Made by a program: the position numbers and the translations under genes
Notes under the pieces: model-generated
Seen by the model: only the letters and a program-made list of their open reading frames with translations
Database searches by the model: none
What the model was told of the DNA's origin: nothing
Shown here: piece after piece, positions 1,646 through 24,035 of the stretch
Layout: each line of letters starts with the position of its first letter
Position numbering within the stretch: position 1 is the first letter of the stretch
NCBI GenBank assembly: GCA_037441705.1
Contig: JBBIRR010000049.1
Span: 1-26,767 of the forward strand
Reading direction: 5' to 3'
Length of the DNA: 26,767 nt
From: Ignavibacteriales bacterium
GTDB lineage: Bacteria; Bacteroidota; Ignavibacteria; UBA10030; UBA6906

Positions 1646-2860
1646 ATGTCCGAAGGCGTCCTCGTCACCCCTGCCAGCGAGCGTGATCTTGGACTCGTGC
1701 CGGGCAAGCCGCCGAGATTGGATTCGGTGGATTTGCTGCGCGGTCTTGTCATGGTGATTATGGCGCTCGACCACACGCATCACTTCTTCACCGCTGCGCG
1801 GTTCAGTCCCGTCAATCTCGATGAGACGACGGTGGGCCATTTTTTCACTCGCTGGCTCACGCATGTCTGTGCGCCGGCTTTCGTCTTTCTGGCCGGGACG
1901 GGAGCGTTCTTGTCCCGCTCCCGCGGCAGGACGAAGCGCGACCTTGCCTGGTTTCTCTTGACTCGCGGCGTATGGCTCATCGTACTGGAGCTGACCGTGA
2001 TGCGCATGGGATGGCAGTTCAGCTTTGACTATTCGTACGCTGTTGGCCAAACACTTTGGGCGATCGGCTGGTCCATGGTGGTTCTTGCTGGTCTCGTCTT
2101 CCTTCCGATTACGGTCACTGCGGCGTTCGGCGTTGTAATGGTTGCCGCGCACAACGCGCTCGACGGTCTTCGGCCGAAGATGTTCGGCGATCTGGCATGG
2201 CTGTGGAAGATACTGCATCATGGAGGGCGCGTGCAAATTTCGGACAGCTACACGCTGAGCGCCATGTATCCTTTGATTCCCTGGATCGGCGTAATGGCGC
2301 TCGGCTATGCATTCGGTGTCCTCTTGCGCAAAGATGCACACGAGCGCAGGAAGATGCTCTTGTGGCTGGGTGGCGGTGCAACGGCGGCGTTTGTTCTTCT
2401 TCGCTGGCTGAATATCTATGGCGACCCGAAGCCCTGGCAAACGTATGACGCCGCGATCTTCACGATCATGAGCTTTCTCAATTGCGACAAGTACCCTCCG
2501 TCGCTTCTGTTTCTGTTGATGACGATGGGGCCGGCGATTGCCTCGCTGGCCTTCTTTGAAAAGGCTCGGGGGAGGGTAGCAGACTTTTTCATCACGTTCG
2601 GGCGGGTGCCGTTGTTCTTCTACGTCGTCCATATCTTTCTGCTCCACGCACTCGCCGTTCTTGCCGCGTACACAACGATCGGAGGCCCCGGCACGCTCGT
2701 GGGGAGCGCCAAACCGTTAGAGCTGCCTCAAGGCTACGGGTTCAGTTTGCCGGTTGTGTACCTTGTGTGGATCGGAGTGGTAGCAATGCTTTATCCGGTT
2801 TGCCGTTGGTATGCAGAGGTGAAGCGGCGGTCGAGAAGCCCGCTGCTCAGTTATCTCTGA
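1646..2860 (+). CDS. DUF1624 / HGSNAT-like multi-pass membrane protein (putative acyltransferase)
   Basis: RLDSVDLLRGLVMVIMALDH, TRWLTHVCAPAFVFLAG, KYPPSLLFLL and FGRVPLFFY motifs; many TM segments; starts 3 nt after the previous stop. Confidence 0.88.
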   Translation: MSEGVLVTPASERDLGLVPGKPPRLDSVDLLRGLVMVIMALDHTHHFFTAARFSPVNLDETTVGHFFTRWLTHVCAPAFVFLAGTGAFLSRSRGRTKRDLAWFLLTRGVWLIVLELTVMRMGWQFSFDYSYAVGQTLWAIGWSMVVLAGLVFLPITVTAAFGVVMVAAHNALDGLRPKMFGDLAWLWKILHHGGRVQISDSYTLSAMYPLIPWIGVMALGYAFGVLLRKDAHERRKMLLWLGGGATAAFVLLRWLNIYGDPKPWQTYDAAIFTIMSFLNCDKYPPSLLFLLMTMGPAIASLAFFEKARGRVADFFITFGRVPLFFYVVHIFLLHALAVLAAYTTIGGPGTLVGSAKPLELPQGYGFSLPVVYLVWIGVVAMLYPVCRWYAEVKRRSRSPLLSYL

Positions 2861-2888
2861 GCGTTTACGATCGTGATCGAAGGTGTCC

Positions 2889-2917
2889 TTGATTCTTGAG
2901 TGGACACCCCGTATTTT
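2889..2917 (+). promoter_or_regulatory. Putative sigma70-type promoter of the pgs operon (TTGATT-N17-TATTTT)
   Basis: -35 at 2889-2894, 17-nt spacer, -10 at 2912-2917. Same -10 hexamer and near-identical spacing to the hairpin as at 1075-1103. Confidence 0.5.
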
Positions 2918-2926
2918 CTAAACAGA

Positions 2927-2989
2927 AAGCCGTTCTCTGATACCATTTGTTCAAAAGCATCGAGGTGTCGTGGAGCGGCTTGATTTTTT
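2927..2989 (+). ncRNA. Structured leader/small RNA, copy 2 (hairpin followed by U-rich tract)
   Basis: AAGCCGTTC pairs with GAGCGGCTT (2973-2981), TGATACC pairs with GGTGTCG, then GATTTTTT. Confidence 0.6.
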
Positions 2990-3126
2990 CTCCCCACACA
3001 ATCTCCTCGGGCTGCTCTTACGCGTCCCTCCGTGCTGCGATAACGTTCAGGGTTGCGCGCGCGTACTATCGGAAATTCCTCTCCGTTCCTTCGGCTACCG
3101 AGGGGTTAATCAAGCGACGGTAGAAC

Positions 3127-4362
3127 ATGTACACATCTTACGTACTGCTGCTGTTCCTCATTCTCTTCATGGTCTATGGGGTGATAGAGTACCATCGTCA
3201 CCAGCGTATGGTTCGTTCGATCTCCATTCGCGTGCACGTGAATGGAACGCGGGGCAAGTCGAGCGTAACGCGCCTCATCGGTGCAGGACTCCGTGCAGGC
3301 GGCATCAAAACGATCACGAAGGTGACAGGAACCTATCCGCGTCTCATTCTTGAGGACGGGCGCGATGTTCACATTCATCGTCGGGGGGATGCAAACATCA
3401 TCGAGCAGGTGGCGATCGTTCGGTTTGCCGCCGAGCGCAATGCACAGGCGCTTGTCGTCGAGTGTATGGCGCTCGAGCAGCTTTATCAGCGGCTGGTGGA
3501 GCGGCAGATGCTGCACGCCACCGTCGGCGTGATTACGAATGTCCGGCTGGATCATATTGACATCATGGGCCGGACCCTCCCGCAGATCGCAAGCGTGTTA
3601 GCCGAAACGATACCGGCTGGCAAGCCTCTCTTTACGGCCGAGCATGTTGTGTCGGACGTCTTGAGGCGATTTGCGGAGAAGAAAAATTCAACGCTGATCT
3701 GTACCACCGAAGATTCCGTCTCCCGAGAGGAGATGAACGGATTCGGTTATATCGAACATCGAGAGAATGTTGCACTGGCGCTCGCCGTTTGCCAGCATCT
3801 CGGCGTTGATCGGCAGGTGGCACTGCGCGGCATGTACGGCGCGACGCCCGATGCAGGCGCCCTGAAGCGCTTCGTCGTTCAGGCGTTCGGGAAGCGGCTC
3901 GTGTTCTACAACGCATTTGCTGCGAACGATCCCGACTCGACCTATCTCGTGTGGAAACGCTTGAGAGACGAGATCGGATTTGAGGGGACACGCATCGTTC
4001 TTCTCAATACACGCCAGGACAGAATGGACCGTGCCCGTCAGCTTGCCGAGCTTGCAGGGAAGAAACTCACGCACGACATGGATTATCTGATGCTGATCGG
4101 CCAGTGTCCCGAAGTGGTGCGAGGGATGGCAATCCGGTACGGGGTGGATGCGGATAGAATTCTCACCGTCGGGTGGACGACACCGGAGCATGTGTTCGAG
4201 CAGGTTCTTCAGGCAACGAACGCAGTTTCGACGATCGTCGCGATCGGCAACATGGGAGGGATGGGCGGTCGCGTCGCGGATTTTTTTGAAAACAGGAGTC
4301 TGAACAAACATGATCGAGTTGGCAATTACGTTGGGTCTGGTTCTGAGTCTGCTGTCGTATGA
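3127..4362 (+). CDS. pgsB: Poly-gamma-glutamate synthase PgsB/CapB
   Basis: N-terminal TM; RVHVNGTRGKSSVTRLI P-loop, KVTGT, NIIEQ, VVECMAL, ITNVRLDH, NAFAAND; Mur-ligase fold. Confidence 0.95.
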   Translation: MYTSYVLLLFLILFMVYGVIEYHRHQRMVRSISIRVHVNGTRGKSSVTRLIGAGLRAGGIKTITKVTGTYPRLILEDGRDVHIHRRGDANIIEQVAIVRFAAERNAQALVVECMALEQLYQRLVERQMLHATVGVITNVRLDHIDIMGRTLPQIASVLAETIPAGKPLFTAEHVVSDVLRRFAEKKNSTLICTTEDSVSREEMNGFGYIEHRENVALALAVCQHLGVDRQVALRGMYGATPDAGALKRFVVQAFGKRLVFYNAFAANDPDSTYLVWKRLRDEIGFEGTRIVLLNTRQDRMDRARQLAELAGKKLTHDMDYLMLIGQCPEVVRGMAIRYGVDADRILTVGWTTPEHVFEQVLQATNAVSTIVAIGNMGGMGGRVADFFENRSLNKHDRVGNYVGSGSESAVV

Positions 4363-4765
4363 GGTCTTCGGGCTGGCGGCCGGCGGCATCGTCGTTCCCG
4401 GCTACATCGCCTTGCATCTGTCGCAGATTGACCGCATGGGCGGTGTCCTGCTTGTCAGTCTGCTGACGTTCGTGATCGTCAAAGTAGCCGGCAACTATAC
4501 GTTTCTGTACGGACGTCGCCAGATGGTGGTGAGTTTGCTGATCGGCGCCCTGTTGGCCAACTTCTCGCGGCAATTTCTAACGCTGGATGTTGCCTCGTCC
4601 GTTGTCGAGTTGACGGCCATCGGGTGGGTGGTTCCCGGACTTATTGCCCATTGGTTTGGTAAGCAGGGAATCTTCAAGACACTCTGTGCTCTGTTCGTCA
4701 CGTCGGTCATGGTACGGTTTACGGTCATCGTGCTGTTCGGCGGCGATCTCTTTCCGGGCGGATAA
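4310..4765 (+). CDS. pgsC: Poly-gamma-glutamate biosynthesis protein PgsC/CapC
   Basis: GLAAGGIVVPGYIAL, LYGRR, IGWVVPGLIA...KQG motifs; 151-aa membrane protein overlapping the end of pgsB. Confidence 0.95.
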   Translation: MIELAITLGLVLSLLSYEVFGLAAGGIVVPGYIALHLSQIDRMGGVLLVSLLTFVIVKVAGNYTFLYGRRQMVVSLLIGALLANFSRQFLTLDVASSVVELTAIGWVVPGLIAHWFGKQGIFKTLCALFVTSVMVRFTVIVLFGGDLFPGG

Positions 4766-4783
4766 CTTTGATAGTGAAAATGT

Positions 4784-5917
4784 ATGGCATCACCAAATTC
4801 AAACTCGAATCCTCTGCTGGCCGTGTTTGCCATTGCGGCGCTGCTTGCGCTCTTGGCGGTCGAGAACTCGAAGCTCGACGTCAAACAGAAGTGGTACAGC
4901 GAGAAGCTTGAGGCAGCGAGGCTGGCGCAAGCGGCCGAGCAGTGCATCAAGAACCATCGGCTCGAACGCGGCGTGTACGTAGATAACGTCAACGACCCGA
5001 ACGAGACGGCCCTCATCGGCCAAAACCTCACGCCGATCACCACCGATCGGGGCGACATCGAGGCCAAACTCGCGTCCACCAATCCGAATTTTGCTGCCGT
5101 CGTAGTCGAGCTGCTGAAGCAAGCAGGCGTCAAGGAGAAGGACTACGTTGCCGTTGCCATGACTGGCTCGTTTCCCGCCCTCAATATTTCGGTCTTCGCC
5201 GCGCTGACGACGCTGAAGCTCAACCCCATAGTGATTACGTCGGTCGGCGCGTCCAATTGGGGAGCCAATGATCCGTCCTTCACATGGCTCGACATGGAAC
5301 GCCTGCTTCAGGAAAAGAATGTCTTTCGTATCCGATCGGTTGCGGCATCCATCGGAGGCGGCGAAGATCTGGGAAGAGGGCTGAGTCCCGAAGGGCGCGA
5401 GATGATTGTTCAAGCCATCAAGCGAAACAACGTTGCTCTCATCCGCGAGGAGCATCTCGAACGCAGCATCGAACGGCGCCTCAAGATGTACGAGGAACAC
5501 GCAAGGGGCAAGCCCATCAAGGCGTACATCAATGTGGGGGGAGGGATCGCGAGCCTTGGGACGGTGGTCAACGGTGAGCTTATCCCCAGCGGACTGTCGA
5601 AGGAACTTCCCGTGAGAAACTATCCGGTGCGCGGGGTGATTGTTGAGATGGCCCGGCGCGGCGTTCCGATCATTCACCTTTACAACATCCGCCAGTTGTG
5701 GGCTGCCCACGAGCTTCCTCTGAATCCCATCCCCCTTCCAGAACCCGGCTCGGGCGGCGTCTTTGTCCGCACGAAATACAATGTGACCATCGCCGCGATA
5801 GCGCTCTGCGTTCTCACAGCAACGATCCTTGTTGCCGCGTACATCGATAGGCGAAGGCATCGCTTGGGGACGGAGCTGGTTCCACGACTCAGTCCGGAGG
5901 TCGGCCATGATCTATAG
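4784..5917 (+). CDS. pgsW: Poly-gamma-glutamate system protein PgsW
   Basis: DPNETALIG...TPITTDRGDIEAKLASTNPNFAA, GSFPALN, SVGASNWGAN, SIGGGEDLG, YINVGGG; N- and C-terminal TM; follows pgsBC. Confidence 0.88.
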   Translation: MASPNSNSNPLLAVFAIAALLALLAVENSKLDVKQKWYSEKLEAARLAQAAEQCIKNHRLERGVYVDNVNDPNETALIGQNLTPITTDRGDIEAKLASTNPNFAAVVVELLKQAGVKEKDYVAVAMTGSFPALNISVFAALTTLKLNPIVITSVGASNWGANDPSFTWLDMERLLQEKNVFRIRSVAASIGGGEDLGRGLSPEGREMIVQAIKRNNVALIREEHLERSIERRLKMYEEHARGKPIKAYINVGGGIASLGTVVNGELIPSGLSKELPVRNYPVRGVIVEMARRGVPIIHLYNIRQLWAAHELPLNPIPLPEPGSGGVFVRTKYNVTIAAIALCVLTATILVAAYIDRRRHRLGTELVPRLSPEVGHDL

Positions 5918-6836
5918 TCGTTCCAACAACAATCTCATGTGCGTTCTATACCTATCGCTCATGATTGCAGCGGTGGCCGTCGGGCCATCCGCTGCCGCAG
6001 CGAAGAAACGTCTTGAACTGAAGCCGAAGGATGCAGCAGAAATGTCCATTGTCAACGCGGGAAAGAAGCGAACGTACTACCAGCTCAGCGCTACCAGACC
6101 GATCGTTGTGTCGGTGAAAGGTCCAGGTCAGCTCCGCATCATCACCCGCACACGTTTTGCAGACAGGGCTGCAGAACCGATGAATTATCGTGTCGTGTAC
6201 AGGATTGATCGAGGCGAAGATCAGGTGGTTGCGTTCGAAGGCATAGTGCCGTCGGTCGTAGCCAGATATCAGAACGGCGCGGCGGGCATTCCCGGCACAT
6301 CACGGAGTCTCTCGTTGAAAATCGGGCGGGGCGTGCACACGGTTGCGTTGAGGATGGAAAGTCCGCTTCCCGATATCTGTGCACGGTTTCTCTTTGCGCC
6401 GCAGAGCGACAGAACAACAAAGTGGATCAGCCTTTCTCCTCTTGCGCCCATCGAGCCGGTGGATCTGTTTGTCGGTGAAGAAACCGTGCATTACTACCGG
6501 TTTTCTTCACGCAAGCCCTTGAAGTTTGACATCATCGGGCCGACGGTGGTACGCGTCTTTACCCGCACAGAGAATACCTACGATATGAAAGGCCAGGTTG
6601 CCTACCGCCTGCAGGTGCGTCAGGACGGCCACGTGCTGCAGTCGTTTCAGCTTAGCAGCAAGCGCTCGCAAACAGCAACCTATAAGAACAACCCTAAACT
6701 CGTTCCGGGGAAGGCACGGGAAATCACATTCAAGGTTCCCAAGGGCAGACACCAATATGAAATCGTACCGCTTGACCATCTGACGTTGTTGGGGGAAATC
6801 TTGTTTCCGAGAAAGGATGCCAAACTTGGACTCTGA
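5907..6836 (+). CDS. Hypothetical secreted basic protein with two tandem beta-rich repeats
   Basis: GGAGG at 5896-5900 before ATG 5907, overlapping the pgsW stop. Signal-like segment ending PSAAAA. Internal repeat YYQLS..RPIVVSVKGPGQLRIITR versus YYRFS..KPLKFDIIGPTVVRVFTR. Confidence 0.8.
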   Translation: MIYSRSNNNLMCVLYLSLMIAAVAVGPSAAAAKKRLELKPKDAAEMSIVNAGKKRTYYQLSATRPIVVSVKGPGQLRIITRTRFADRAAEPMNYRVVYRIDRGEDQVVAFEGIVPSVVARYQNGAAGIPGTSRSLSLKIGRGVHTVALRMESPLPDICARFLFAPQSDRTTKWISLSPLAPIEPVDLFVGEETVHYYRFSSRKPLKFDIIGPTVVRVFTRTENTYDMKGQVAYRLQVRQDGHVLQSFQLSSKRSQTATYKNNPKLVPGKAREITFKVPKGRHQYEIVPLDHLTLLGEILFPRKDAKLGL

Positions 6837-7938
6837 CCTGGTAATCGACCGGAAGGCGCGCGCAATCCTGTCTTGCCTGACGTTGATGCTGGCGCTTGCC
6901 GTTCTTCCAGCACGGGCGCTCTCAGCCGGCATCATCGGCTCCTGGAAGGTTGACATCGGCCTCTCTTCGATCTACGATGACAACATTGTCCGATACTCCG
7001 ATAAGTACATCAGTCGGTTCGACAATCGCCAGGACGAGGGGCGCTTTCACATCAACACCCGCGATGACCTGATTCTCGTAAGCTCGCTGCGCACATCTGT
7101 TGTGATGAAGATGTTCGGCACGCTGAACACGACGGCGACTCTGGATGTTCGCCGACGAACGTACACGCACAACCCCATAAAGGATTGGTCATCCTACAGC
7201 TTCAGGATACGACAAGAACTGTCGAAACAACTTGTCGTGACGGTTGGGTACAACTACCTCCCCGCGTTCTACATTCGTCACTATCGCGACGATGATTGGG
7301 TGAAGGAATACGGCTACACGCCGGTGACGTTTCAACCGTTTGGCTTCAAGAAGGATGAGGCCTCCGGTACGGTGCAATATGCTATCTCGTCGAACACGCG
7401 AGTGACCGCGCTTATCTCCTATGCGCGGTACTACTACAACGAGCACTTCACGGAATACGATTCCAAGAATTCTTCGTTCGGTATCGAGATTGTGCAGAGC
7501 GTTTCCAAGACCATCAAGCTTACAGGCGATATCGGCGTGGTGTATTCGCGAGGTGTCGGGACGCCGGATATGGATCCCTCGTATCACGAAAACAACGTTG
7601 CCGTCAGCGTCAGCGTTGGGTTGCCGAAAGTCTTTGGCCGCACCAATAGCATCGAAGTAGGCGGAGAGTATGCGCGGCGTGTGTTTACCTCCACACATTA
7701 TCTTGAGCTGGACCCGAACCATGCCGGTCGGCGCGACTACGATTACCGCGTATCGGTGAAGTACAGCTACCAGCTTCTCAGCCAGTTCGCTCTCGCTCTC
7801 ACGTACGCCTGGCATCGGCGAGATGCGGTGACCTCGGCCGCGGCGAATGCTGAATACCTTGCCGAAGAAAAAGACTATCGGCAATACCAGATCGGATTGG
7901 ATCTGCGATTTACATTGAATGTACTTCCATCAAAATGA
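6817..7938 (+). CDS. Putative outer-membrane beta-barrel protein
   Basis: Signal peptide; N-terminal IGLSSIYDDNI motif; alternating amphipathic Tyr/Gly-rich strands; last strand YQIGLDLRFTL. Confidence 0.75.
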   Translation: MPNLDSDLVIDRKARAILSCLTLMLALAVLPARALSAGIIGSWKVDIGLSSIYDDNIVRYSDKYISRFDNRQDEGRFHINTRDDLILVSSLRTSVVMKMFGTLNTTATLDVRRRTYTHNPIKDWSSYSFRIRQELSKQLVVTVGYNYLPAFYIRHYRDDDWVKEYGYTPVTFQPFGFKKDEASGTVQYAISSNTRVTALISYARYYYNEHFTEYDSKNSSFGIEIVQSVSKTIKLTGDIGVVYSRGVGTPDMDPSYHENNVAVSVSVGLPKVFGRTNSIEVGGEYARRVFTSTHYLELDPNHAGRRDYDYRVSVKYSYQLLSQFALALTYAWHRRDAVTSAAANAEYLAEEKDYRQYQIGLDLRFTLNVLPSK

Positions 7939-7954
7939 TGAAAGGGAACCTGTG

Positions 7955-8971
7955 ATGTTCAAGAGCCTGTCGTTCATCTTCTGCTGTGTGATCGTGTTCA
8001 GTTGTGCTAAGCCGGTTGACCCCGAATCGCTGACGCCGGGGACGGGAGGGTATTCGATTGTTGCCAGAGTACCGACACCGGGCTCCGCACAGGATGTCGA
8101 AGTGATGGACACGCTTGCCTTTGTTGCTCAGGGGGAAGGAGGGCTGGCTGTCGTGAGTGTGGCCGATGGAGCTCGGGCGCGCATCCTCTCCATTTGCATT
8201 GATGGGGTCCGCGGCTACTCATACAAACTGGCGCGCAGGGACTCCATTATCTACATCGCTGCGGGAGGGTTCGGTATCAACACGATCAACGTTGCCAGGC
8301 CCGACACGGCTGCGTTCGTGGCCCACTATGGCGGCGCAAGCAGCACGACGGATGTGGAGGTATTCGGGACGTGGCTGCTGGAAGCCAAAGGAGAAGCCGG
8401 GTTACGCTTCGATGCTCTCGCGGGCGTTGATCCGGGCTATGTGGATGCACGAGGCTCGATCCTCGGTCCGGGTTATGCGCGCGGCATGGCCATTACTGCC
8501 GATAGCACGCTCGCCCTCACCTGCGGTGAAATGGGACTGGCGATTTATGACCTGCGCGACATTGGACGCGTCGAGGGCTTCTATGATTCCGGGAAGAGGT
8601 ATGACGCGTGGATTGATCTCCCCGGGTATGCTGTTGACGTCGCAGTGCCCGAGAACCAGAAGATTGCCTACGTTGCGTGCGGCACCGCCGGGGTTCAGGT
8701 CGTGGATTTCTCCGACACGGCCAACGTTCGCGTGATCGGCAGCTACGCGACGAGGGGCTACGCGAAAGAAATCGCGTACAAGGATCGTCGCGTCTACGTT
8801 ACGACCGAACTCAGGGGCTTGCAAATTCTCTCGGTCGAAAATCCCGCGGCACCCACTCTTGTGGGTGTTGTCGGCACGAGCTATGCGTTAGGCCTTGCGG
8901 TTGATCAGCGATACGTGTACGTGGCGGACCAGGATGAAGGATTGGTGATTGTCGCAATCCCTCAATACTAA
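7955..8971 (+). CDS. LVIVD-repeat (beta-propeller) lipoprotein
   Basis: Lipobox VFSC; repeats AFVAQGEGGLAVVSV, AYVACGTAGVQVVDFSD, VYVTTELRGLQILSVENP, YVYVADQDEGLVIV. Confidence 0.85.
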   Translation: MFKSLSFIFCCVIVFSCAKPVDPESLTPGTGGYSIVARVPTPGSAQDVEVMDTLAFVAQGEGGLAVVSVADGARARILSICIDGVRGYSYKLARRDSIIYIAAGGFGINTINVARPDTAAFVAHYGGASSTTDVEVFGTWLLEAKGEAGLRFDALAGVDPGYVDARGSILGPGYARGMAITADSTLALTCGEMGLAIYDLRDIGRVEGFYDSGKRYDAWIDLPGYAVDVAVPENQKIAYVACGTAGVQVVDFSDTANVRVIGSYATRGYAKEIAYKDRRVYVTTELRGLQILSVENPAAPTLVGVVGTSYALGLAVDQRYVYVADQDEGLVIVAIPQY

Positions 8972-9006
8972 CTGACTCCCGCTTGTTCAATTCTTTGAGG
9001 TGAACG

Positions 9007-12000
9007 ATGACGCGCACATTGTGCATTCTTGGCTTGATCCTCGCGGTTCTTTCCTGCCCCTCGCGAGGCGAATGGGTCGCACTCAGCCGGGGCTCAGCGC
9101 TGCCGGTTGCTCCGGTCGTTTCACTCCTTGACGATGATCAGCTACATACTACGTTGAAGGTAGAGCTGTCGGGGTTTGATATGGACGAGTTTGTTGCTGG
9201 CGGGAAAACTTATCACTCCATTGACCTGCTGACGGACATTGCCACAAACGAAGCGGGAAGCCCGGAAGTCCCGTATGTTGCCACGATGCTTGCCGCTCCC
9301 GATCAGGGCGATGTGACAGTCGAGGTGATTGCACATGGAGAAATCCTCAAGTTTACGGACGTGCTGCTGCCGCCTTCGCGACCGAGCTGGCAGGAGGGGG
9401 AGCCGGAGCCGGCGTATGTGGAAAACAACGCGGCGTACACGTCAGGCGCGGCGTATCCGTCGTCGTATGTTGCTGTTGACGAGCCGGTGGTGTTTCGTGA
9501 TTTTCGTGTGGCGCGTGTTGCCATCTATCCGGTGCGTTATGTGCCGAAGTCAAAGCAACTGGAGGTGAGTTCTTCAATGACGATTCGAGTGACCTATGGT
9601 GGAGGAGAGGGAACCAACCCGCGCACGGCACCGAGACGCGCCATTCCGCCGTCGTTCGGGAGCATCTATCGTCACACGTTGTTGAACTACGAGCGTGTGT
9701 TGAATAGACTGTACGGCGGCATGGAACTCGGACGCGAGGTGATGCTCTGCATCCTGCCCGATACGTTCGCCACAACGTTCAAGACGTATGCGGAATGGAA
9801 ACACAAGACGGGCACGTTTGTCATCGTCACCAAGTTCAGCCAGATCGGTGCCAACAGCACGAACCCCGACATCATCAAGAACTACATAGCGCAGTGCTAT
9901 CACAACTGGGCGTTTCCTCCAACGTATATTCTGCTCGGCGGAGATTACGGGTACGTGCCGCGCAAGTATGCGGAAGGGCAATCGTTTTCCAACGAGGATT
10001 ACTTCGTGGAGATCGATGGCAACGATGTCTTTCCGGAGATGTACATCGGGCGGTTGACGCATCAGACCAACACGGTTCTGCAGACCATCATCAACAAACT
10101 CATCAAATACGAGCGGCAGCCGTACCGCGAAAATCAGACGTGGTTCAAGCGTGCGGTTGTGTGTGCGAACAATGCCTATCCCACACAACCGGAAACCAAG
10201 CGCTGGGTCTCGGCGGTGATGCGAGAAAGCGGCGGCTTCATCGTTGATACGCTGCTGAATTCCTACGGCAGTTCGTGCATCTACAACCTGCCGCAGGTGA
10301 TCGGTGCTATCAACAGCGGACGCAGCATCCTCAACTACCGCGGCGAGGGCAACTACGCGGGCTGGTGGGCTTCCTGTTATCCGTTCAACACGAGCAACGT
10401 CTCGAGCTTGAATAACGGCGAGATGCTGACGTTCGTGACCAGCATTGGATGCGGCGTTGCAATGTTCGACTACAGCGGCGGCAACTGTTTCGGCGAGCAA
10501 TGGTTGGAACTCGGTACGCCGACAAGCGCCCGCGGCGCCTGCGCCTTCGTTGGCCCGACGTGGAGCAACACGCACACGAAGTACAACAATGCGATCGACA
10601 AAGGACTCTACGTTGCCCTCTTTCAGGAAGGACTGGAGACGCCGGCTCAAACATTACTGCGCGGCAAAATCCGGATGTACACTCTCTATGGAGGCACGGA
10701 CCCTCAAGTGCCGCTGCATTTTAGGGCGTACACCGTGTTAGGCGATCCCAGCACTCACATCTGGAAAGACGTTCCTCGAGCTGTTCAGCTTACCTACGTT
10801 CCTCAAATCGCCGTCGGCTACAATCAGGCGGAAATACGCGTCCTTGATTCTGCAACGCACGCACCCGTCAGTGGCGCCGAGGTTTGTCTCGCCGGCAAAA
10901 CTGTGTACGTCACCGGGCGGACGGATGCCTCCGGTCTGGCAGTCATACCCGTCACTCCCACGGCCATTGACACGCTGTCCCTCCTTGTCCGAGGTGTCAA
11001 CGTCGTGCCTGCAGAAGGAACAATCTATGTCGTGCAAGAACAAGAGCATGTGGCTCCCCTGGGCGACCCACAGATTGCCGATCTCGATGGGAACCTAGAC
11101 GGCAAGGTGAACCCGAACGAGCACATTCAGATTTCGTATGTGCTGAAAAACTGGGGGACGCAGCCGTCGGTGAATGTCGAAGCGCGGCTGTCTGTTGTCG
11201 ACACGATGTATGGCCAGATCGTCAATGGCGGACCGGTTGCGTATGGGACCCTCGGTCCAAATGAATCCGGTACCGGCTCGGGCACGCCTCTTCAGTTCTT
11301 CGTCAATCCCACGACACCTGTTGGGACGACGTTCCATGTGCGCTTGCATGTCTCCAGCGCGACTCGTTCGTGGAGCTACACGACTCGAACGGATGTTGTC
11401 GGCTGCAGCCTGCAATACGGCGCAACGATTGTCAACGATCAAAACTCCTCGAATCCGAACGGACGGCTTGACCCGGGCGAGACGGCCGTCATCTATGTGA
11501 GAATTCGAAATGAGGGACAGGACGCAGCGCCGAACGTTACCGGCATTCTGCGCACGTCCGACCCATATCTCACGATTCTTGACTCGACGGGAAGTTTCGG
11601 TACACTTGCCATTGGCGACAGCGCGTTGAATACGGCTGATTACTTCGTGGTTGCCGCTTCCGATTCTACTCCTCTTGCCTCGATTCATTCTCTTGCTATT
11701 TCGCTGCGTACGCAGAACGGCAACTATCCTTACGCTGTGGTTCGCGATTTCTCGATTGCTGTCGGACTTCCGAGCGCAACCGACCCGACCGGCCCCGATG
11801 CGTACGGCTATTATGCCTATTCCAGCGACGACAGCCTCTATGTTGCGGCCCCGCGATTTGATTGGGTGGAAATCAGAAGCACCGGAACGCGCGTCCCGTA
11901 CGTCTCGCCCGGGGACTTTACGGTCAATCCCACGCTTCCGTTCACGTTCAAATATTATGGGAGAAATTACACGCGCGTGCGCATCAGCAGCGACGGCTGG

Positions 12001-12783
12001 ATAGCATTCGGGACCGGAACCCAGACGGCCTTCAACAACTATCCTCTTCCGAACAGAGATGGTGTGACCAACATGGTGGCTGCGTTCTGGGATGATTTGT
12101 TTGAGAGTACCAACAATCCGACCAGCAAGCTCTTCTATTACAATGACGCCGTCAATCGCCGTTTCATTGTGGAGTGGGACTCTGTTGCTCACTACAGCGG
12201 CACGCAGTTTCGGGAAAGTTTTCAGATCATCCTCTACGATCCTGCCTTCTATCCAACGCCGACGGGAGACGGGGAGATTCTCGTGCAATACCGGATTGTC
12301 GGTGAGGAGGGGTCATGTACGATCGGCATCGAGGACAGCACGCAGACGATCGGCTTGCAGTACCTCTACAACAGTACGTATGATCAGACGGCGTCGGAGA
12401 TTCGCGACGGTGTGGCAATCAAGTTCACAACAAAACCTCCCGATCGCTTGGTGAGTGTCGGCGAGCGGACAAGCTCCGGCGCGCTGCCGCAAGAGTTCAG
12501 TCTGGAACCGAACTATCCCAATCCGTTCAACCCGGCAACGACGATCACGTACGCCCTGCCGATGGGCGGCCACGTCTCGTTGAAGCTGTACGACATTGTT
12601 GGCCGGGAGGTGTGCACGCTGGTTGATGAGGAACAGCAGGCAGGCGTAAAGTCTGTCCGCTGGGATTCGAAAACACGATACGGCACGCAGGCTGCGAGCG
12701 GCGTCTACTTCGTGCGTTTGGATGTACACGCAGCGAAAGGTAAAGTCTTCTCAAAGGTGCGCAAGATTATGCTCTTGAAATAA
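9007..12783 (+). CDS. Gingipain-like peptidase C25 family protein with propeptide, Ig-like domains and T9SS C-terminal sorting domain (paralog 1)
   Basis: Signal peptide; propeptide (GSPEVP); YILLGGD, PEMYIGR, LNYRGEG, SIGC, LGDPS; C-terminal NYPNPFNPATTITY...ASGVYFVRL...KIMLLK. Confidence 0.9.
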   Translation: MTRTLCILGLILAVLSCPSRGEWVALSRGSALPVAPVVSLLDDDQLHTTLKVELSGFDMDEFVAGGKTYHSIDLLTDIATNEAGSPEVPYVATMLAAPDQGDVTVEVIAHGEILKFTDVLLPPSRPSWQEGEPEPAYVENNAAYTSGAAYPSSYVAVDEPVVFRDFRVARVAIYPVRYVPKSKQLEVSSSMTIRVTYGGGEGTNPRTAPRRAIPPSFGSIYRHTLLNYERVLNRLYGGMELGREVMLCILPDTFATTFKTYAEWKHKTGTFVIVTKFSQIGANSTNPDIIKNYIAQCYHNWAFPPTYILLGGDYGYVPRKYAEGQSFSNEDYFVEIDGNDVFPEMYIGRLTHQTNTVLQTIINKLIKYERQPYRENQTWFKRAVVCANNAYPTQPETKRWVSAVMRESGGFIVDTLLNSYGSSCIYNLPQVIGAINSGRSILNYRGEGNYAGWWASCYPFNTSNVSSLNNGEMLTFVTSIGCGVAMFDYSGGNCFGEQWLELGTPTSARGACAFVGPTWSNTHTKYNNAIDKGLYVALFQEGLETPAQTLLRGKIRMYTLYGGTDPQVPLHFRAYTVLGDPSTHIWKDVPRAVQLTYVPQIAVGYNQAEIRVLDSATHAPVSGAEVCLAGKTVYVTGRTDASGLAVIPVTPTAIDTLSLLVRGVNVVPAEGTIYVVQEQEHVAPLGDPQIADLDGNLDGKVNPNEHIQISYVLKNWGTQPSVNVEARLSVVDTMYGQIVNGGPVAYGTLGPNESGTGSGTPLQFFVNPTTPVGTTFHVRLHVSSATRSWSYTTRTDVVGCSLQYGATIVNDQNSSNPNGRLDPGETAVIYVRIRNEGQDAAPNVTGILRTSDPYLTILDSTGSFGTLAIGDSALNTADYFVVAASDSTPLASIHSLAISLRTQNGNYPYAVVRDFSIAVGLPSATDPTGPDAYGYYAYSSDDSLYVAAPRFDWVEIRSTGTRVPYVSPGDFTVNPTLPFTFKYYGRNYTRVRISSDGWIAFGTGTQTAFNNYPLPNRDGVTNMVAAFWDDLFESTNNPTSKLFYYNDAVNRRFIVEWDSVAHYSGTQFRESFQIILYDPAFYPTPTGDGEILVQYRIVGEEGSCTIGIEDSTQTIGLQYLYNSTYDQTASEIRDGVAIKFTTKPPDRLVSVGERTSSGALPQEFSLEPNYPNPFNPATTITYALPMGGHVSLKLYDIVGREVCTLVDEEQQAGVKSVRWDSKTRYGTQAASGVYFVRLDVHAAKGKVFSKVRKIMLLK

Positions 12784-12828
12784 GCATCACCACACCGAAC
12801 CCACTCACTGGTCAAAAGGAGGCACACG

Positions 12829-15800
12829 ATGATACGAGTGATTTGCTGGAGCATCTTTGCGTCGCTGATTGTTATCTCGCCCGTACACAGCGACTGGGTG
12901 TCGCTGAAAGGACATGTTTCGCAACCTGCCGCCCCGCACGTAACACTTCTGCAAGACGATGCAACGGCAACCGTGCTGCGGATTGACGTATCGGGTTTTG
13001 AGGTGCGCGATGTTGTAGCGGCAGGTCGAACCTACACGGCCGTTGACCTCCTCACACACGCGTTCATGACGGAGGCCGGTTCTCCTGAACTGCCCTGTGT
13101 AACGAAGATTCTTGCAGTCCCGGATCGCGGCGACGTGTCACTCGAAGTCGTTGAAACGGGTGAAGAGTTTACCTTCTTGGGGTATCATGTGCCGCCCGCA
13201 AGGATTTCGTGGATGGAGGGAGACACGGAGCCGCCGTATGTCGAGAGCGCAGACGTGTATCGCTCGGCCGAAGTTTATCCGCCGAGAGCCGCTTCGCTCG
13301 ATCCGCCGGCGGTGTTTCGTGACTTCCGCATCGTGCGTATTGCCGCGTATCCTGTCCGCTACGTTGCCGCGAGGAACGAACTACGCGTAGCGTCATCACT
13401 CACCATCCGCCTCACGTACGGCTCCGGCGATGGAGTGAATCCCCGAACCGGCGCACGCAAACCGATCGCCCCGTCCTTCGCCGCTCTCTATCGTAGCTCC
13501 ATTTTCAATTACCAGAGCATTCTCACCAGAGAATACGGCGGCATGGAGACAGGACGTGATGTGCTCATCTGCATTGTGCCCGATGCGTTTGCCAACAGCC
13601 TGATGCCGTTTGCGAACTGGAGACATAAGACAGGCACGTTCGTGAAGGTGACAAAGTTCAGCGAGATTGGCGCGACCGCAACGAACCCCGATATCATCAA
13701 GAACTATCTTGCGCAGGTCTACAACACGTGGGAGTATCCTCCGACGTATGTGCTGTTAGCAGGCGACTACGGCTATGTTCCCATCAAGCAGGTGACGTAC
13801 GACTACACGATTGTCAGCGAGAATTACTTCGTCGAGATTGAAGGGAATGATTTTCTGCCCGAGATGATGATTGGACGCTTCACGCATGAAAGCGACGTCA
13901 CCGAGCAGAACATCGTCGGCAAAACGGTAAGCTACGAGCGGACACCGTTCACCGCCAACACCGCATGGTTCAAGAAAGGCGTAGTCGCGAGCAACAATGA
14001 GTACGAGTCGGCGATTGTGACAAAGCGGTTCACGCGCGATCGCATGATGCTCGACGGCGGCTTCACGCAGGTGGATACGTTCATGAACCACAGTCCGTGC
14101 TATTCAACGTTGAGCGATCTGATCAACACGATCAATAACGGACGGAGCTTTCTGAACTACCGTGGGGAAGGATGGTACACAGGATGGTGGGCATCGTGTT
14201 ACAACTTCCAGACCTCGAACGTTTCTTCCATAAACAATGGCCGGATGCTCACGTTCGTGACGAGTATTGGCTGCGGGGTCGGCGCGTTCAATCAGGCGTC
14301 CTGCTTTGGCGAAGCATGGCTCGAGCTGGGAACCGTTGCCTCGCCGAGGGGAGCGGTGGCGTTCATTGGGCCTACCTCCAACACACACACGGCCTACAAC
14401 AATAAGATTGACATGGGCATCTACATGGGCTTGTTTCAGGAAGGGTTGGAGACCGCGGGGCAGGCGCTTGAGCGAGGTCGGCTCTTCATGTACGAAGTCT
14501 TCGGGAATCAACGATGGACGGAGTACCAGACGCATGTGTACTGCATCCTCGGCGATCCCAGCTTGCACGTCTGGAAGAATGTCCCGCGTCCGGTTGCGGT
14601 TATTCACCCCTCGTCCATCTCCGTCGGGTATAATCAGGTGTCGTTCAAGGTGACGGATTCTGCAAGCGGCGCGCCGATAGCCGCAGCGCAGGTGTGCCTG
14701 GCCGGAGACAGCCTCTACGCATCAGCGTTCACCGATTACGCCGGGGTTGCCGTTCTTCCAATCACGCCTCCGATGATTGATACGCTGACTGTCCTGGTGA
14801 GAGGCGGCAATGTGATTCCGTATGAAGGTACAATCTCCGTTGCCGCCAACACCGAGTACGTTGCGCCCAGCGAAGAACCTGTTGTGGTTGATCTCGACGG
14901 CAATCTTGATGGGCTGATCAACCCCAACGAGCATGGGCAGATACGCTTCACACTGAAGAACTGGGGAACGCAGACGGCATTGAATGTGCGGGCGACGCTG
15001 AGTGTGGACACATCAAGGGTTGAGCTGCAAACCGCTGCGCCCGTCGAATTTGGAGACATTCCCGGCGGTGCGACGGTTGCCGGTGCTCCGTTCCGCTTCT
15101 TTGTGAAGCCGACGTCGAGCGTTGGTGATACACTGACCTTCGGCCTGCATGTGAGCAGCGCAACGGGCGCGTGGGATTATGTTTACACGCTGGAAGTGAA
15201 AGGTTGCAGGCTGAAAAGCGTTCACTATCTTGTTGACGATCGCGCGTATCCGAGGCCGAACGCCCGGATGGATCCGGGGGAGACGGTGCGGCTGTACCTT
15301 ACGCTGAAGAATGTCGGAGAAGACGTCGCACCGGATGTACGGGCGGTGCTTCGCTGCTCAAATCCAAACATCACGATCCTCGACTCGCTTGCATCCTTTG
15401 GCACGCTGCCAATGGACAGCTCGCTAACCAACTATACAGATTACTTTGTGGTGAAGGTGGACAGTGTATGTCCGCCGGGGTACGTGATGCCGTTCAGTCT
15501 TCTGCTCTCCACGCAGAGCGGGTTGTACGCATACCGCGCTGTTGACACGTTTTCGATTCGCATCTCCGTCGGACGACGCGGCGATCCGACCGGGCCCGAT
15601 GCTTACGGGTACTACGCGTATGCCTCCGATGACACGATGTACCGACAGGCGCCTCGCTTCAACTGGATCGAGATCAGCAGCATCGGCACGCGCGTAACCA
15701 TCCCCTCAAGCGGGAACGTCACCGCCACCGTGAGTCTGCCGTTTACGTTCAGGTACTACGGGACAAATTACACGCAGGTACGCATCAGCAGTGATGGGTG

Positions 15801-16584
15801 GATCGCATTCGGCAGCGGCACGCAAACAGCGCCCTCCGCCTATTGCCTTCCGCGCAGCGATAACGTGAATGCGATGGTTGCAGCGTTCTGGGACGATCTG
15901 TTCTTTCCCACCAGCGTCGACACGAGTCAGAGATTGTACTACTATCATGACGCCGCGAGCCAACGCTTCATCGTCGAGTGGGACAGATTCGGCCACAACA
16001 ACACTCACATCGGGCGATGGAACCAGGAAAAGTTCCAGATCATACTCTCCACCTCCAGTCCCACAGTAGATGGAGAAATCCTCTTCCAGTACAAAACAGT
16101 TGCCTATCCGGTGGAATGCACGGTTGGTCTGGAGGATCATACTCAGACCACCGCGCTTCAGTACATCTGCTACGACCAGCCCAATGATGAGACCGTCACG
16201 CCGTTGAGAAATTCGCTGGCGCTTCTGTTCACAACGCAGTCGCCGCAACTGCTGGTCGGGGTAGATGAGTTACGGGAAGGGGATGGAGAGGTTCCGCGGG
16301 GATTTGCGCTCTTGCAGAACTATCCGAACCCGTTCAATCCCTCCACGCGCATTCCCTTCTCGGTTGGCGGTTCGAGTGGTTCGGCATCCCCCGCCACATG
16401 GTTCGTGAGCTTGAAGGTCTACGATATTCTCGGTCGAGAGGTGCGAACGTTAGTGAATGAGAATCTTCAGTCCGGAAATTATCAGGTGACATTCGATGCC
16501 GGCACACTCGCAAGCGGCGTCTATATCTACAGGCTCACTGCCGGAAGTTTTGTCGCCGCGCGCAAGCTCATTGTGCTCAAGTGA
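12829..16584 (+). CDS. Gingipain-like peptidase C25 family protein with T9SS C-terminal sorting domain (paralog 2)
   Basis: AGGAGG RBS; colinear with paralog 1; YVLLAGD, PEMMIGR, LNYRGEG, SIGC, LGDPSL; NYPNPFNPST...LASGVYIYRL...KLIVLK. Confidence 0.9.
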   Translation: MIRVICWSIFASLIVISPVHSDWVSLKGHVSQPAAPHVTLLQDDATATVLRIDVSGFEVRDVVAAGRTYTAVDLLTHAFMTEAGSPELPCVTKILAVPDRGDVSLEVVETGEEFTFLGYHVPPARISWMEGDTEPPYVESADVYRSAEVYPPRAASLDPPAVFRDFRIVRIAAYPVRYVAARNELRVASSLTIRLTYGSGDGVNPRTGARKPIAPSFAALYRSSIFNYQSILTREYGGMETGRDVLICIVPDAFANSLMPFANWRHKTGTFVKVTKFSEIGATATNPDIIKNYLAQVYNTWEYPPTYVLLAGDYGYVPIKQVTYDYTIVSENYFVEIEGNDFLPEMMIGRFTHESDVTEQNIVGKTVSYERTPFTANTAWFKKGVVASNNEYESAIVTKRFTRDRMMLDGGFTQVDTFMNHSPCYSTLSDLINTINNGRSFLNYRGEGWYTGWWASCYNFQTSNVSSINNGRMLTFVTSIGCGVGAFNQASCFGEAWLELGTVASPRGAVAFIGPTSNTHTAYNNKIDMGIYMGLFQEGLETAGQALERGRLFMYEVFGNQRWTEYQTHVYCILGDPSLHVWKNVPRPVAVIHPSSISVGYNQVSFKVTDSASGAPIAAAQVCLAGDSLYASAFTDYAGVAVLPITPPMIDTLTVLVRGGNVIPYEGTISVAANTEYVAPSEEPVVVDLDGNLDGLINPNEHGQIRFTLKNWGTQTALNVRATLSVDTSRVELQTAAPVEFGDIPGGATVAGAPFRFFVKPTSSVGDTLTFGLHVSSATGAWDYVYTLEVKGCRLKSVHYLVDDRAYPRPNARMDPGETVRLYLTLKNVGEDVAPDVRAVLRCSNPNITILDSLASFGTLPMDSSLTNYTDYFVVKVDSVCPPGYVMPFSLLLSTQSGLYAYRAVDTFSIRISVGRRGDPTGPDAYGYYAYASDDTMYRQAPRFNWIEISSIGTRVTIPSSGNVTATVSLPFTFRYYGTNYTQVRISSDGWIAFGSGTQTAPSAYCLPRSDNVNAMVAAFWDDLFFPTSVDTSQRLYYYHDAASQRFIVEWDRFGHNNTHIGRWNQEKFQIILSTSSPTVDGEILFQYKTVAYPVECTVGLEDHTQTTALQYICYDQPNDETVTPLRNSLALLFTTQSPQLLVGVDELREGDGEVPRGFALLQNYPNPFNPSTRIPFSVGGSSGSASPATWFVSLKVYDILGREVRTLVNENLQSGNYQVTFDAGTLASGVYIYRLTAGSFVAARKLIVLK

Positions 16585-16608
16585 CTTGTTCATCGTCGCC
16601 GCACAAAT

Positions 16609-16643
16609 CAAACCTCACTCGTGCGGGTGAGGTTTGTTTTTTT
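16609..16643 (+). terminator. Rho-independent terminator closing the pgs-C25 operon
   Basis: CAAACCTCAC (16609-16618) / GTGAGGTTTG (16627-16636) perfect 10-bp stem followed by T7. Confidence 0.85.
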
Positions 16644-16713
16644 GGTTAAACCAACGTCGGTTCCCGTGACTCTAATTCCTGACAAGATCATCATTCATAC
16701 CAATGAGGAATTC

Positions 16714-17094
16714 ATGCGATCTTCATTTCTTCACATAGCGCTGGTCTCCCTGCTCGTGCTTCTGGCTCAACCGAGCGTCCTTGCGCAGGGCCCGGGACGT
16801 GGCCGTCCTGCGCCCGACGAGCGAGCGGCGGAGCTAAAGACGCTGCTGAAGTTGTCGGACGAACAGACGACAACGGTGAAGAGGATCTTCGAGCAGCAGG
16901 ACAAGGAAGTGCGCAAGCTGTTCGAGTCTGCCGCCGGTGATCGGGCTGCCATGCGCGAGGCGATGCAGAAGAATGCCCGAGAGACAGACGAAAAGATTCT
17001 CGCTCTGTTGAATGGGGAGCAGCAGACTAAGTACAAGCAGTGGGTGGACGAGCGGCGGGCGCGCTTCGAGCAGCGTCGTTCACGGCGGGAGTGA
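16714..17094 (+). CDS. Small periplasmic helical protein, Spy/CpxP (LTxxQ)-like
   Basis: GAGG before ATG 16714; signal peptide ending VLA-Q; LKLSDEQ and LLNGEQQ motifs; charged helical composition. Confidence 0.75.
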   Translation: MRSSFLHIALVSLLVLLAQPSVLAQGPGRGRPAPDERAAELKTLLKLSDEQTTTVKRIFEQQDKEVRKLFESAAGDRAAMREAMQKNARETDEKILALLNGEQQTKYKQWVDERRARFEQRRSRRE

Positions 17095-17170
17095 TGGAGG
17101 CTCACGGGCGCAAATTCCCATAAATATGGTATTGCGACTGTACGCGTTGTTGGGTTAATTGTTTGCCGAT

Positions 17171-17253
17171 GGCGGTGAGTCCTTTGTCTCAGCAGCAAAG
17201 GATCAGAATCCCGACGGGCGAGTTCCCGCAGACCCCTCGCCCGGCTCACCGCC
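17171..17253. ncRNA. Putative structured RNA (three-way junction) upstream of the sensor kinase
   Basis: GGCGGTGAG/CTCACCGCC closing stem with TCCTTTG/CAAAGGA and CGGGCGAG/CTCGCCCG inner stems, all perfect Watson-Crick. Strand cannot be determined. Confidence 0.45.
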
Positions 17254-17343
17254 TGCATTATTTCCCGAGACGCTTCGCTTCTCTCTTCCACTTGTTTTTC
17301 CATCCCTACTCCGCTACATTGAGATAGCGTATTCGTTGTTGCG

Positions 17344-19227: not shown

Positions 19228-19232
19228 GCCTT

Positions 19233-20552: not shown

Positions 20553-20758
20553 GCCGGAGGAGCGGCGTCGTTGCGCCTCCTACATCCAAAGTCAAGACCT
20601 CGCTCGAAAAACCTCCTCGCCCGAACGTTTGACTTACACCCTTGCGACCGTCTCGCGGGGTCCATTGTCGCGTCATGCCGAGAGCGAGTTCGGCAAGGAA
20701 TCCTTTCTTCCTTTCAATATCGGTTCTGTCCTACGCAGGCACGCTCACATCCCGGGAA

Positions 20759-21781: not shown

Positions 21782-21815
21782 TGAGTACCCTCGCTAGTGT
21801 TGTGAGCGTGCTTGC

Positions 21816-21946
21816 GCATAACGTTTGGCAGCGCAACGCAGTGGCACGCCGAACTATAATAAATCAATTTCTCGTGAAGGCGTGCCATTGAGCGACCTCT
21901 TTATTCCTTTTCAAATGTGGGAGCGTCGTTGCGCTGCCTGTTATGC
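21816..21946 (-). repeat. attC site
   Basis: Minus strand reads GCATAAC AGGCAGCGCAACG ... CGTTGCGCTGCCAAAC GTTATGC; 131 bp; begins 16 nt after the DUF5655 gene stop. Confidence 0.9.
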
Positions 21947-21962
21947 GCCGCTTGCCCGTGAA

Positions 21963-22877: not shown

Positions 22878-22913
22878 TGGGGCAACGTTCCTTATTCAGT
22901 TCGGGCAAATGGC

Positions 22914-23063
22914 GCATAACGTGTGCGGGCACTATGCCGCCCCGCCGACTATGCTTTTCTATCAACTGACGGCGGGGTGGAACGAGTACAACCGATGGAG
23001 CCAAACCGAGAATGAACATTTCCTTACCAAATGAATCGAGTGTCATAGTGCCCGCTGTTATAC
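22914..23063 (-). repeat. attC site
   Basis: Minus strand reads GTATAAC AGCGGGCACTATG ... CATAGTGCCCGCACAC GTTATGC; 150 bp. Confidence 0.9.
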
Positions 23064-23131
23064 GTTCGTGGCCGCCATCAATCGCGGTGACTCCTTTGGG
23101 TTGTGGCACACCAAAGGCGCGGAAATACTGG

Positions 23132-23941: not shown

Positions 23942-23965
23942 AGGAGGTCATTTGGTGGTGGGGAC

Positions 23966-24030: not shown

Positions 24031-24035
24031 GGTAA

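Follow-up and report, generated by a model that had tools for sequence, protein, structure and literature searches.

A probable poly-gamma-glutamate gene cluster in an Ignavibacteriales genome

The window, i.e., the whole stretch of DNA analyzed here, comprises 26,767 nucleotides (nt) of contig JBBIRR010000049.1 from an Ignavibacteriales bacterium (GenBank assembly GCA_037441705.1). It carries pgsB, pgsC, and pgsW, the core genes of a poly-gamma-glutamate (PGA) synthase, followed by five genes, here called g4 to g8, whose products are a basic secreted protein, a predicted outer-membrane beta-barrel, a lipoprotein, and two putative type IX secretion system (T9SS) cargo proteins with a C25 peptidase domain (Table 1). 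The eight open reading frames (ORFs) form a head-to-tail run on the + strand that spans positions 3127-16584, and neighboring ORFs overlap or sit 16 to 45 nt apart. The original prediction, made from this DNA by itself, had named the same eight co-directional genes, and the profile scores and ORF positions agree with it; the strong terminator that it placed after g8 and the gap ahead of pgsB were likewise found. The g4 ORF opens at a TTG codon at 5829, the ATG at 5907 being the likely start, and the likely start of g6 is at 7955, so that g5 and g6 overlap or are separated by 16 nt depending on the start chosen.

The comparisons described below indicate that this region is probably a lineage-specific arrangement of a conserved module, with sharp borders, of Ignavibacteria-like Bacteroidota that makes PGA and moves it through a two-membrane envelope. 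That the module is a functional unit dedicated to PGA is very likely.

Table 1. Positions of the features in the window and of module or module-associated genes in related loci (numbered within each locus)
Locus	Feature	Position	Strand	Basis
Window	Gene for HGSNAT-like (DUF1624-type) membrane acyltransferase	1646..2860	+	Pfam HGSNAT_cat, 61.5 bits (cut-off, 22)
Window	266-nt leader, acyltransferase gene to pgsB	2861..3126	+	Sequence reading
Window	pgsB, PGA synthase ligase subunit	3127..4362	+	TIGR04012, Mur_ligase_M
Window	pgsC, synthase membrane subunit; overlaps pgsB	4310..4765	+	TIGR04011, Caps_synth_CapC
Window	pgsW; 18 nt after pgsC	4784..5917	+	TIGR04332, "poly-gamma-glutamate system protein"
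Window	g4, basic secreted protein, two predicted beta-sandwich domains like carbohydrate-binding modules (CBMs); overlaps pgsW	5907..6836	+	Model, isoelectric point (pI)
Window	g5, predicted outer-membrane beta-barrel with signal peptide; 20-nt overlap with g4	6817..7938	+	Predicted model
Window	g6, LVIVD-repeat (beta-propeller) lipoprotein	7919..8971	+	LVIVD profile, lipobox
Window	g7, T9SS cargo with C25 domain; 35 nt after g6	9007..12783	+	Pfam/NCBIfam profiles
Window	g8, second copy of the g7-type C25 clade; 45 nt after g7	12829..16584	+	Pfam/NCBIfam profiles
Window	Intrinsic-terminator-like hairpin and T run	16609-16636 or 16609..16646	+	12-bp stem, 6 G-C pairs, loop of 4
L055; L090; L107	Ninth module gene, examples	21036-22289; 21049-22305; 19779-20747	(L107) -	
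L010 (genome G145); L037 (genome G097)	PKD+PGA_cap+T9SS-tail cargo, ~1000 amino acids (aa)	11485-14487; 10227-13262		PGA_cap, 202 bits

Linkage of the genes across genomes and metagenomes

Among 301 genomes sampled evenly from the phylum, pgsW was found in 8, g4 in 4, and close full-length homologs of g7 in 3 (two candidates per genome were scored for g7). These sets of genomes were nested, and the genes were adjacent in each case. A pattern-limited scan with a g4 alignment against 185,579 species genomes yielded 14 loci, all of them labeled Ignavibacteriales/Ignavibacteriaceae, "Chlorobi," "Bacteroidetes," or Chitinophagales. The trio pgsB-pgsC-pgsW lay immediately upstream of g4 in 14/14 loci, and g5 came after g4 in all 14 as well (tblastn showed this for 13, and a profile comparison gave 99.7% probability for L030), while g6 followed g5 in 12. 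A full-length C25 homolog, 47 to 66% identical, adjoined 12 of the 14 g4 loci, and genome G097 has one too.

The linkage was also seen from the other end of the cluster, in a metagenome scan that was anchored on C25 and covered the best 80 of 532 confirmed places. Among the 67 loci with enough flanking sequence, pgsB adjoined the C25 gene in 62, and pgsB, pgsC, pgsW, g4, g5, and g6 were present in that order in 33 of the 34 whose downstream sequence reached 7 kb or more. The C25 gene preceded pgsB in 61 loci; in 1 it came after pgsB, as in the window. Three C25 loci in which no pgsB was seen end early: the sequence stops inside or just past the PGA_cap gene that follows C25 in L112 and L117 and 263 nt past the second of two tandem C25 genes in L118. 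Clustering of the 60 metagenome pgsB segments gave 52 groups at a 90% identity level, 27 at 80%, and 7 at 70%; the loci are related yet not copies of each other.

Taken together, these results strongly support the association of pgsBCW with g4, g5, g6, and C25, and the co-occurrence of the downstream genes with pgsBCW, which the original prediction had proposed to look for elsewhere, extends to loci with a different gene order. Some observations weigh against a strict linkage. Four of the eight pgsW genomes of the phylum sample have no g4, which means that the module is not required wherever pgsBCW exist. Two of the metagenome loci, L073 and L098, have no pgs genes near C25 and look like true exceptions, and the metagenome loci share kinship in addition to being the best 80 of 532.

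Borders and gene order of the module

The borders of the module were assessed in 14 loci with 10 kb on both sides, using three references in turn and comparing each with the 13 others. The C25 gene recurred in 13/13 loci, pgsB to g6 in 12/13, an acyltransferase gene in 10/13, and a ninth gene in 9/13, whereas flanking genes outside this block recurred in 0 or 1 of the 13. The canonical order is C25-pgsB-pgsC-pgsW-g4-g5-g6-acyltransferase-lipoprotein, and the window is a permuted form of it: in both the window and its sister species, G145, the acyltransferase gene is directly upstream of pgsB and C25 is downstream of g6. An HGSNAT-like gene followed g6 in 26 of the 30 full metagenome loci, on the same strand in 21, and the acyltransferases of L055 and L107 matched HGSNAT_cat with 51.5 and 35.2 bits. 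The ninth gene encodes a lipoprotein of 320 to 420 aa that contains internal repeats and matched no Pfam family with confidence. This gene was looked for in the genome of the window and was not found; the ORF at 893-1642 of the window was tested as a candidate for it and rejected.

The eight-gene extent originally predicted missed the acyltransferase gene on the left, and in most lineages the module also has the ninth gene. C25 is a member of the module, whereas g8, which is 52 to 53% identical to g7, is a lineage-specific duplicate of the C25 gene. The slot matching g8 in G145 holds a 1000-aa protein with PKD and PGA_cap domains and a T9SS tail, and at least 8 distinct places have a protein of this type beside C25, in many cases with its gene lying between those of C25 and pgsB. 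Such a protein would carry a CapA-like domain to the outside of the cell; its presence in the sister species means that domains of the CapA type are not out of place here. Cargo of the same type was also observed beside C25 in L019, L103, L112, L117, and L027.

Given this pattern of conservation, we consider it very unlikely that the C25 genes encode ordinary secreted proteases, serving nutrition for example, that lie beside the pgs genes but act on another product. Such proteases would be unremarkable in a genome in which T9SS cargo genes are numerous, ~45 further ORFs matching the PorU model in its tail part and nowhere else, and the source databases do name the proteins of this C25 clade, which comprises >650 clusters at 90% identity, as peptidases. 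The adjacency to pgsB, however, survives a change in gene order while the flanks are unconserved, close homologs occur only in genomes with a g4 locus (3 of 301), and the active site differs from that of a standard C25 peptidase, as described below.

The synthase core and its genome context

PgsB and PgsC both pass equivalog-level models. PgsB matched TIGR04012 with 411.9 bits (cut-off, 222.7) over model positions 2 to 380 of 380 and also matched Mur_ligase_M, and PgsC matched TIGR04011 with 110.8 bits (cut-off, 96.45) and Pfam Caps_synth_CapC with 104 bits. PgsW, which matched TIGR04332 with 341.9 bits (cut-off, 100), has hydrophobic segments at its N- and C-terminal ends and between them a domain of ~300 aa that we infer to be periplasmic. 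For PgsW, the Pfam search gave no family, the PDB sequence search gave no relative, and the protein Atlas search gave no usable lead. Natural fusions of PgsW to g4 exist, namely, P0096 (693 aa) and P0131 (672 aa), which matched TIGR04332 with 297 and 307 bits, respectively; three proteins, drawn from ENA and JGI, make up the P0131 cluster.

No match to PGA_cap, the CapA/PgsA family (PF09587), was obtained anywhere in the 100%-complete genome of the window, in a search that was positive in 7 of 14 reference genomes. The sole GGT/CapD-family gene of the genome is on another contig (C20) and is unlinked to the pgs genes. Among the relatives, GGT was present in two of three that bear pgs genes and in one of two that lack them, and it was never adjacent to pgs genes there; GGT does not travel with the cluster. 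The absence of capA and capD from the window, noted in the original prediction, thus extends for capA to the entire genome. The alternative raised alongside it, that copies elsewhere in the genome could account for export and anchoring, was not borne out: no capA was found and the distant GGT is not co-inherited with the cluster.

Candidates for passage through the envelope

At 50% identity, 651 representatives of the g4 family were counted among 1.84 billion proteins, and g4 matched no Pfam or NCBIfam model above the cut-off. Its model, built from an 87-sequence alignment, has a pLDDT of 93.3 and consists of an N-terminal helix and two repeated beta-sandwich domains, with tandem CBM51, tandem CBM22, and PNGase F as the nearest solved folds in Foldseek. 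Mature g4 has a pI of 10.2 and contains 46 Lys and Arg versus 25 Asp and Glu residues, and the pI exceeds 8 in 90% of the 87 homologs. The basic pI of g4 and its relatives fits a binder of a polyanion.

The g5 model (pLDDT, 91.5) is a 14-strand antiparallel barrel. No Pfam or NCBIfam model matched g5 above its cut-off, the Pfam family OMP_b-brl reaching 25.2 bits against a cut-off of 28.7, and the many structures found by Foldseek included OmpG (E = 1e-9; TM-score, 0.67), CymA, chitoporin, the PgaA barrel (4y25), BcsC, and PelBC. The possibility that g5 is a PorP/PorQ/PorV-like anchor for T9SS cargo was considered and rejected; no such family or structure matched, and the idea is further weakened by g5 keeping company with g4 in loci without C25. 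The g6 protein matched LVIVD with 65.8 bits (cut-off, 20.2), and its lipobox Cys is followed by a Pro-containing motif that recurs in homologs.

On balance, we slightly favor the view that g4, g5, and g6 mediate passage across the envelope. The structural matches count against an assignment as specific as this one. Those of g4 are generic jelly-rolls with TM-scores near 0.25, and because these scores are low, its likeness to CBMs and PNGase F is a generic jelly-roll resemblance; g5, for its part, matches the polymer secretins PgaA, BcsC, and PelBC no better than generic porins, and it has no TPR domain.

A further alternative is that no free PGA capsule is exported and that PgsBCW add gamma-glutamyl groups to some other envelope acceptor or produce short oligomers, a product that would be processed by g4 to g6, the acyltransferase, and C25. 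The absence of PgsA/CapA from the genome would suit such a product, as would a PgsW without a Pfam family or PDB relative and a membrane acyltransferase that is a member of the module. To our knowledge, moreover, PGA has not been established as the product of the pgsBCW-type locus of Francisella, a point that also counts against PGA as the product here. We nevertheless regard this alternative as decidedly improbable, since PgsB and PgsC pass equivalog-level models, a strongly basic two-domain g4 and a dedicated barrel fit a long polyanion, and a CapA-like domain has been recruited to the cluster in sister lineages.

The C25 proteins and their active site

Both g7 and g8 matched Peptidase_C25 (PF01364; 183.5 and 194.2 bits, respectively), Propeptide_C25 (PF08126; 66 bits each), and TIGR04183, the model of the type A tail of T9SS cargo (30.5 and 37.1 bits against a cut-off of 23). 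Their architecture comprises a C25 prodomain, a C25 domain, an Ig/CARDB-like region, a NIDO-like stretch, and a type A C-terminal sorting domain. For the C-terminal domain of g7, NIDO was the only lead (score of 0.92 in the protein Atlas search), and a PDB sequence search with g7 residues ~680-1185 found nothing. With 73.5 and 54 bits, g7 and g8 fall short of the PorU model NF033707 (cut-off, 420); the genome has its own T9SS, including PorU (967 bits; contig C19) and SprA (881 bits). A longer form of the g7-type clade, of ~1550 aa, is common (P0274-P0292), and a tandem pair is found in L118 at 6285-15874.

To map the active site, the C25 domain of g7 was aligned to the gingipain RgpB (E = 1e-24). 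The RgpB chain numbering reproduces the published Cys244, Asp163, and Trp284 and the inhibitory loop Lys121-Tyr135; the catalytic His was taken as 211 (chain index, between Gly210 and Gly212), and a passage of PMC4357240 prints it as 221. The catalytic Cys is kept, as Cys482 (RgpB Cys244), in 97/97 copies in the loci. Basic residues occupy positions around the S1 pocket: Arg445 (RgpB Thr209) is present in 97/98 copies and His523 (RgpB Trp284, the S1 lid) in 93/97, and Lys398, invariant in 96/96, is conserved together with Arg399 near the Asp163 loop of RgpB, where the alignment is gappy. In the prodomain, Glu130, which aligns with RgpB Arg126, is present in 85/85 copies. Passages of PMC4138498 and PMC4357240 describe how Arg126 of the RgpB prodomain inserts into the S1 pocket as a substrate would and how the loop matches the specificity of the enzyme. 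By analogy, given the invariant Glu130 at this position, the pocket of the C25 clade would take a glutamyl group, which is what a protein acting on PGA, or holding it, would be expected to do. The alignment thus suggests that the C25-clade active site recognizes glutamyl groups. That the C25 proteins act on glutamyl substrates is a more tentative proposal, which we rate as close to an even call but leaning toward doubt.

Clan CD peptidases rely on a His/Cys dyad. Position 447, which corresponds to the catalytic His211 of RgpB, is Glu in 91, Gln in 6, and Met in 1 of 98 copies, and Glu in 119 and Asp in 1 of the 120 top database homologs. With Glu or Gln at the clan CD His position, the C25 clade may be catalytically dead. 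The S1-residue mapping, in addition, rests on a sequence alignment to RgpB at ~25% identity. The C25 paralogs PorU, C36a, and C75 of the same genome keep the His at this position, and the C36b match stops short of it.

These features raise the alternative that the C25 proteins are pseudo-proteases, i.e., T9SS surface cargo that binds or scaffolds PGA non-covalently, with the cleft turned into a glutamyl or carboxylate pocket. Gln and Met would be unable to serve as a general base, the large extra CARDB-like and NIDO-like domains are typical of surface proteins, and other lineages put protease-free T9SS cargo, such as Sortilin/BNR proteins and PQQ-type propellers, in the neighboring slot. The invariance of Cys482 argues in the opposite direction, as does the full gingipain-type prodomain with its invariant loop Glu, whose retention is easier to explain if C25 activity must be held in check; His523, at an S1-lining position, could serve as the base instead. 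We consider pseudo-proteases fairly unlikely.

The original prediction had also suggested that the C25 proteins trim PGA, transfer it, or act as surface carriers in place of CapD. The absence of the catalytic His from the clade leaves a transpeptidase role like that of PorU or CapD as one possibility that falls short of a supported conclusion, and covalent anchoring of PGA by the C25 proteins is, in our judgment, quite unlikely. In summary of their relation to known enzymes, g7 and g8 resemble the gingipains RgpB and Kgp and the T9SS sortase PorU in having a prodomain, C25 fold, Ig-like domain, type A T9SS tail, and catalytic Cys, but they differ from them in the Glu or Gln in place of the catalytic His, the basic S1-lining residues, and the loop Glu in place of RgpB Arg126, and they add NIDO-like and CARDB-like domains. 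The active-site changes suggest a specificity or chemistry new to clan CD.

Proposed mechanism and relation to known systems

The function proposed for the module is plausible: its extra genes may export PGA and may trim or anchor it. PgsB and PgsC, with PgsW replacing PgsA/CapA, would polymerize glutamate at the inner membrane. Attached to PgsW, g4 would bind the polyanion in the periplasm, a role proposed on account of its strongly basic character, its two CBM-like domains, and the PgsW-g4 fusions of some organisms. The g5 barrel would then provide the outer-membrane exit, with the beta-propeller lipoprotein g6 as its accessory. At the cell surface, to which T9SS would deliver the C25 proteins, PGA would be the target of their putative glutamyl-recognizing Cys site, which would trim and release the polymer or else attach it, and the HGSNAT-like acyltransferase may modify the polymer or its acceptor. 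Weighing against this scheme as a whole, every function in it is deduced from family, fold, charge, and synteny. In its most far-reaching version, the C25 clade would be a new glutamyl-specific clan CD enzyme that keeps the Cys nucleophile, has the classical His replaced, perhaps uses His523 as a relocated base, and, once delivered by T9SS, covalently tethers or tailors surface PGA; together with PgsW, g4, g5, and g6, it would constitute the first route to be defined by which a polyamide capsule is exported across an outer membrane and anchored. We regard this version as a long shot.

Work on PGA centers on Bacillus, in which PgsA and CapD handle the steps after synthesis. The cluster is like the Bacillus PgsBCA(E)/CapBCADE systems in its equivalog-level PgsB and PgsC, its operon-like form, and the encoding of a post-synthesis factor beside the synthase, which in Bacillus anthracis is CapD according to passages of PMC4928254. 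It is unlike them in that the genome lacks PgsA/CapA, the cluster lacks CapD, PgsW takes the third position, and the envelope has two membranes, and it goes beyond them in encoding a periplasmic protein, a barrel, and a lipoprotein, along with T9SS cargo and an acyltransferase. The same three-gene core is found in the Gram-negative pgsB-pgsC-pgsW trios (TIGR04332), the "capBCA" of Francisella among them; a passage of PMC5362203 bears on the Francisella "capA," which NCBI names "poly-gamma-glutamate system protein" (TIGR04332), and a passage of PMC8542988 reports that metagenome-assembled genomes (MAGs) of Cloacimonadota encode CapBC and transport proteins. Unlike what is known of these trios, with which we did not find g4, g5, g6, the C25 clade, or the acyltransferase reported, the window carries all of them.

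In overall plan, the cluster also resembles the synthase-dependent exporters PgaABCD, AlgK/AlgE (alginate), BcsC (cellulose), and PelBC (Pel), which combine an inner-membrane synthase, a periplasmic polymer binder, an outer-membrane barrel, and a lipoprotein partner. It differs from these exopolysaccharide exporters in its polyamide polymer, its lack of sequence homology to them, and the 14 strands of g5, which has no TPR domain, whereas exopolysaccharide secretin barrels have 16 to 18 strands. The review literature, in the passages of PMC4928254 consulted, covers PgsBCA, anchoring by CapD, and Fusobacterium nucleatum as a Gram-negative PGA producer. Across the titles, abstracts, and passages searched, nothing tied pgsBC(W) to T9SS, C25, or g4 to g6, and no account was found of PGA crossing and staying on a two-membrane envelope. 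The cluster provides candidates for each of these steps, namely, a PgsW-linked periplasmic binder, a barrel with a lipoprotein, a membrane acyltransferase, and surface-secreted proteins, and it connects PGA with T9SS.

Variant loci, regulatory signals, and neighboring genes

Several related loci vary in their accessory genes. In some lineages, a large T9SS cargo gene comes after g6 or g5 (L011, 8312-12079; L019, 15557-19324; L012, 6291-10637); these proteins either combine a PQQ/BamB-like propeller with CarboxypepD_reg or combine Sortilin/BNR with Flg_new_2 repeats. L030, from a distant Ignavibacteriales MAG without a C25 gene, has two genes directly upstream of pgsBCW-g4-g5 (1727-7196), one of the GGT/CapD family (567 bits) and one for a T9SS cargo of the Sortilin/BNR type, with GGT two genes upstream of pgsB. 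In G153, which has pgsW and no g4, pgsW is followed by genes for a DUF6305 protein (L013, 4110-4880; 148 bits) and a polytopic membrane protein, which may be an alternative accessory set. The 430-aa protein encoded after the DUF6305 gene was examined as a g5 homolog and rejected.

The hairpin after g8 has the longest stem and the top rank among the terminator-like sites listed for the window; overall, promoter-like and terminator-like sites in the window are no commoner than in shuffled sequence. In the leader ahead of pgsB, no promoter-like site above chance was found, and an Rfam search matched no family. A scan for the sigma-54 consensus gave 8 matches versus 13.8 expected, none of them within the leader.

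Past the terminator (16621-20552), the window encodes an LTXXQ/Spy-like periplasmic protein, a PAS-HAMP histidine kinase, and a sigma-54-dependent response regulator, a set that is not in the conserved module of the other loci. A histidine kinase gene lies directly upstream of pgsB in G089. From 20759 to 26767, the G+C content falls from ~56% to 44 to 50%, and minus-strand genes of the HSDR_N, DUF5655, and DUF3800 types appear; this part of the window may be a mobile or defense islet. It includes a match to the DUF3800-VI RNA motif of Rfam on the minus strand at 23976-24028 (65.5 bits against a gathering score of 35); the DUF3800 gene that this motif shortly precedes is at 23132-23941 (-).

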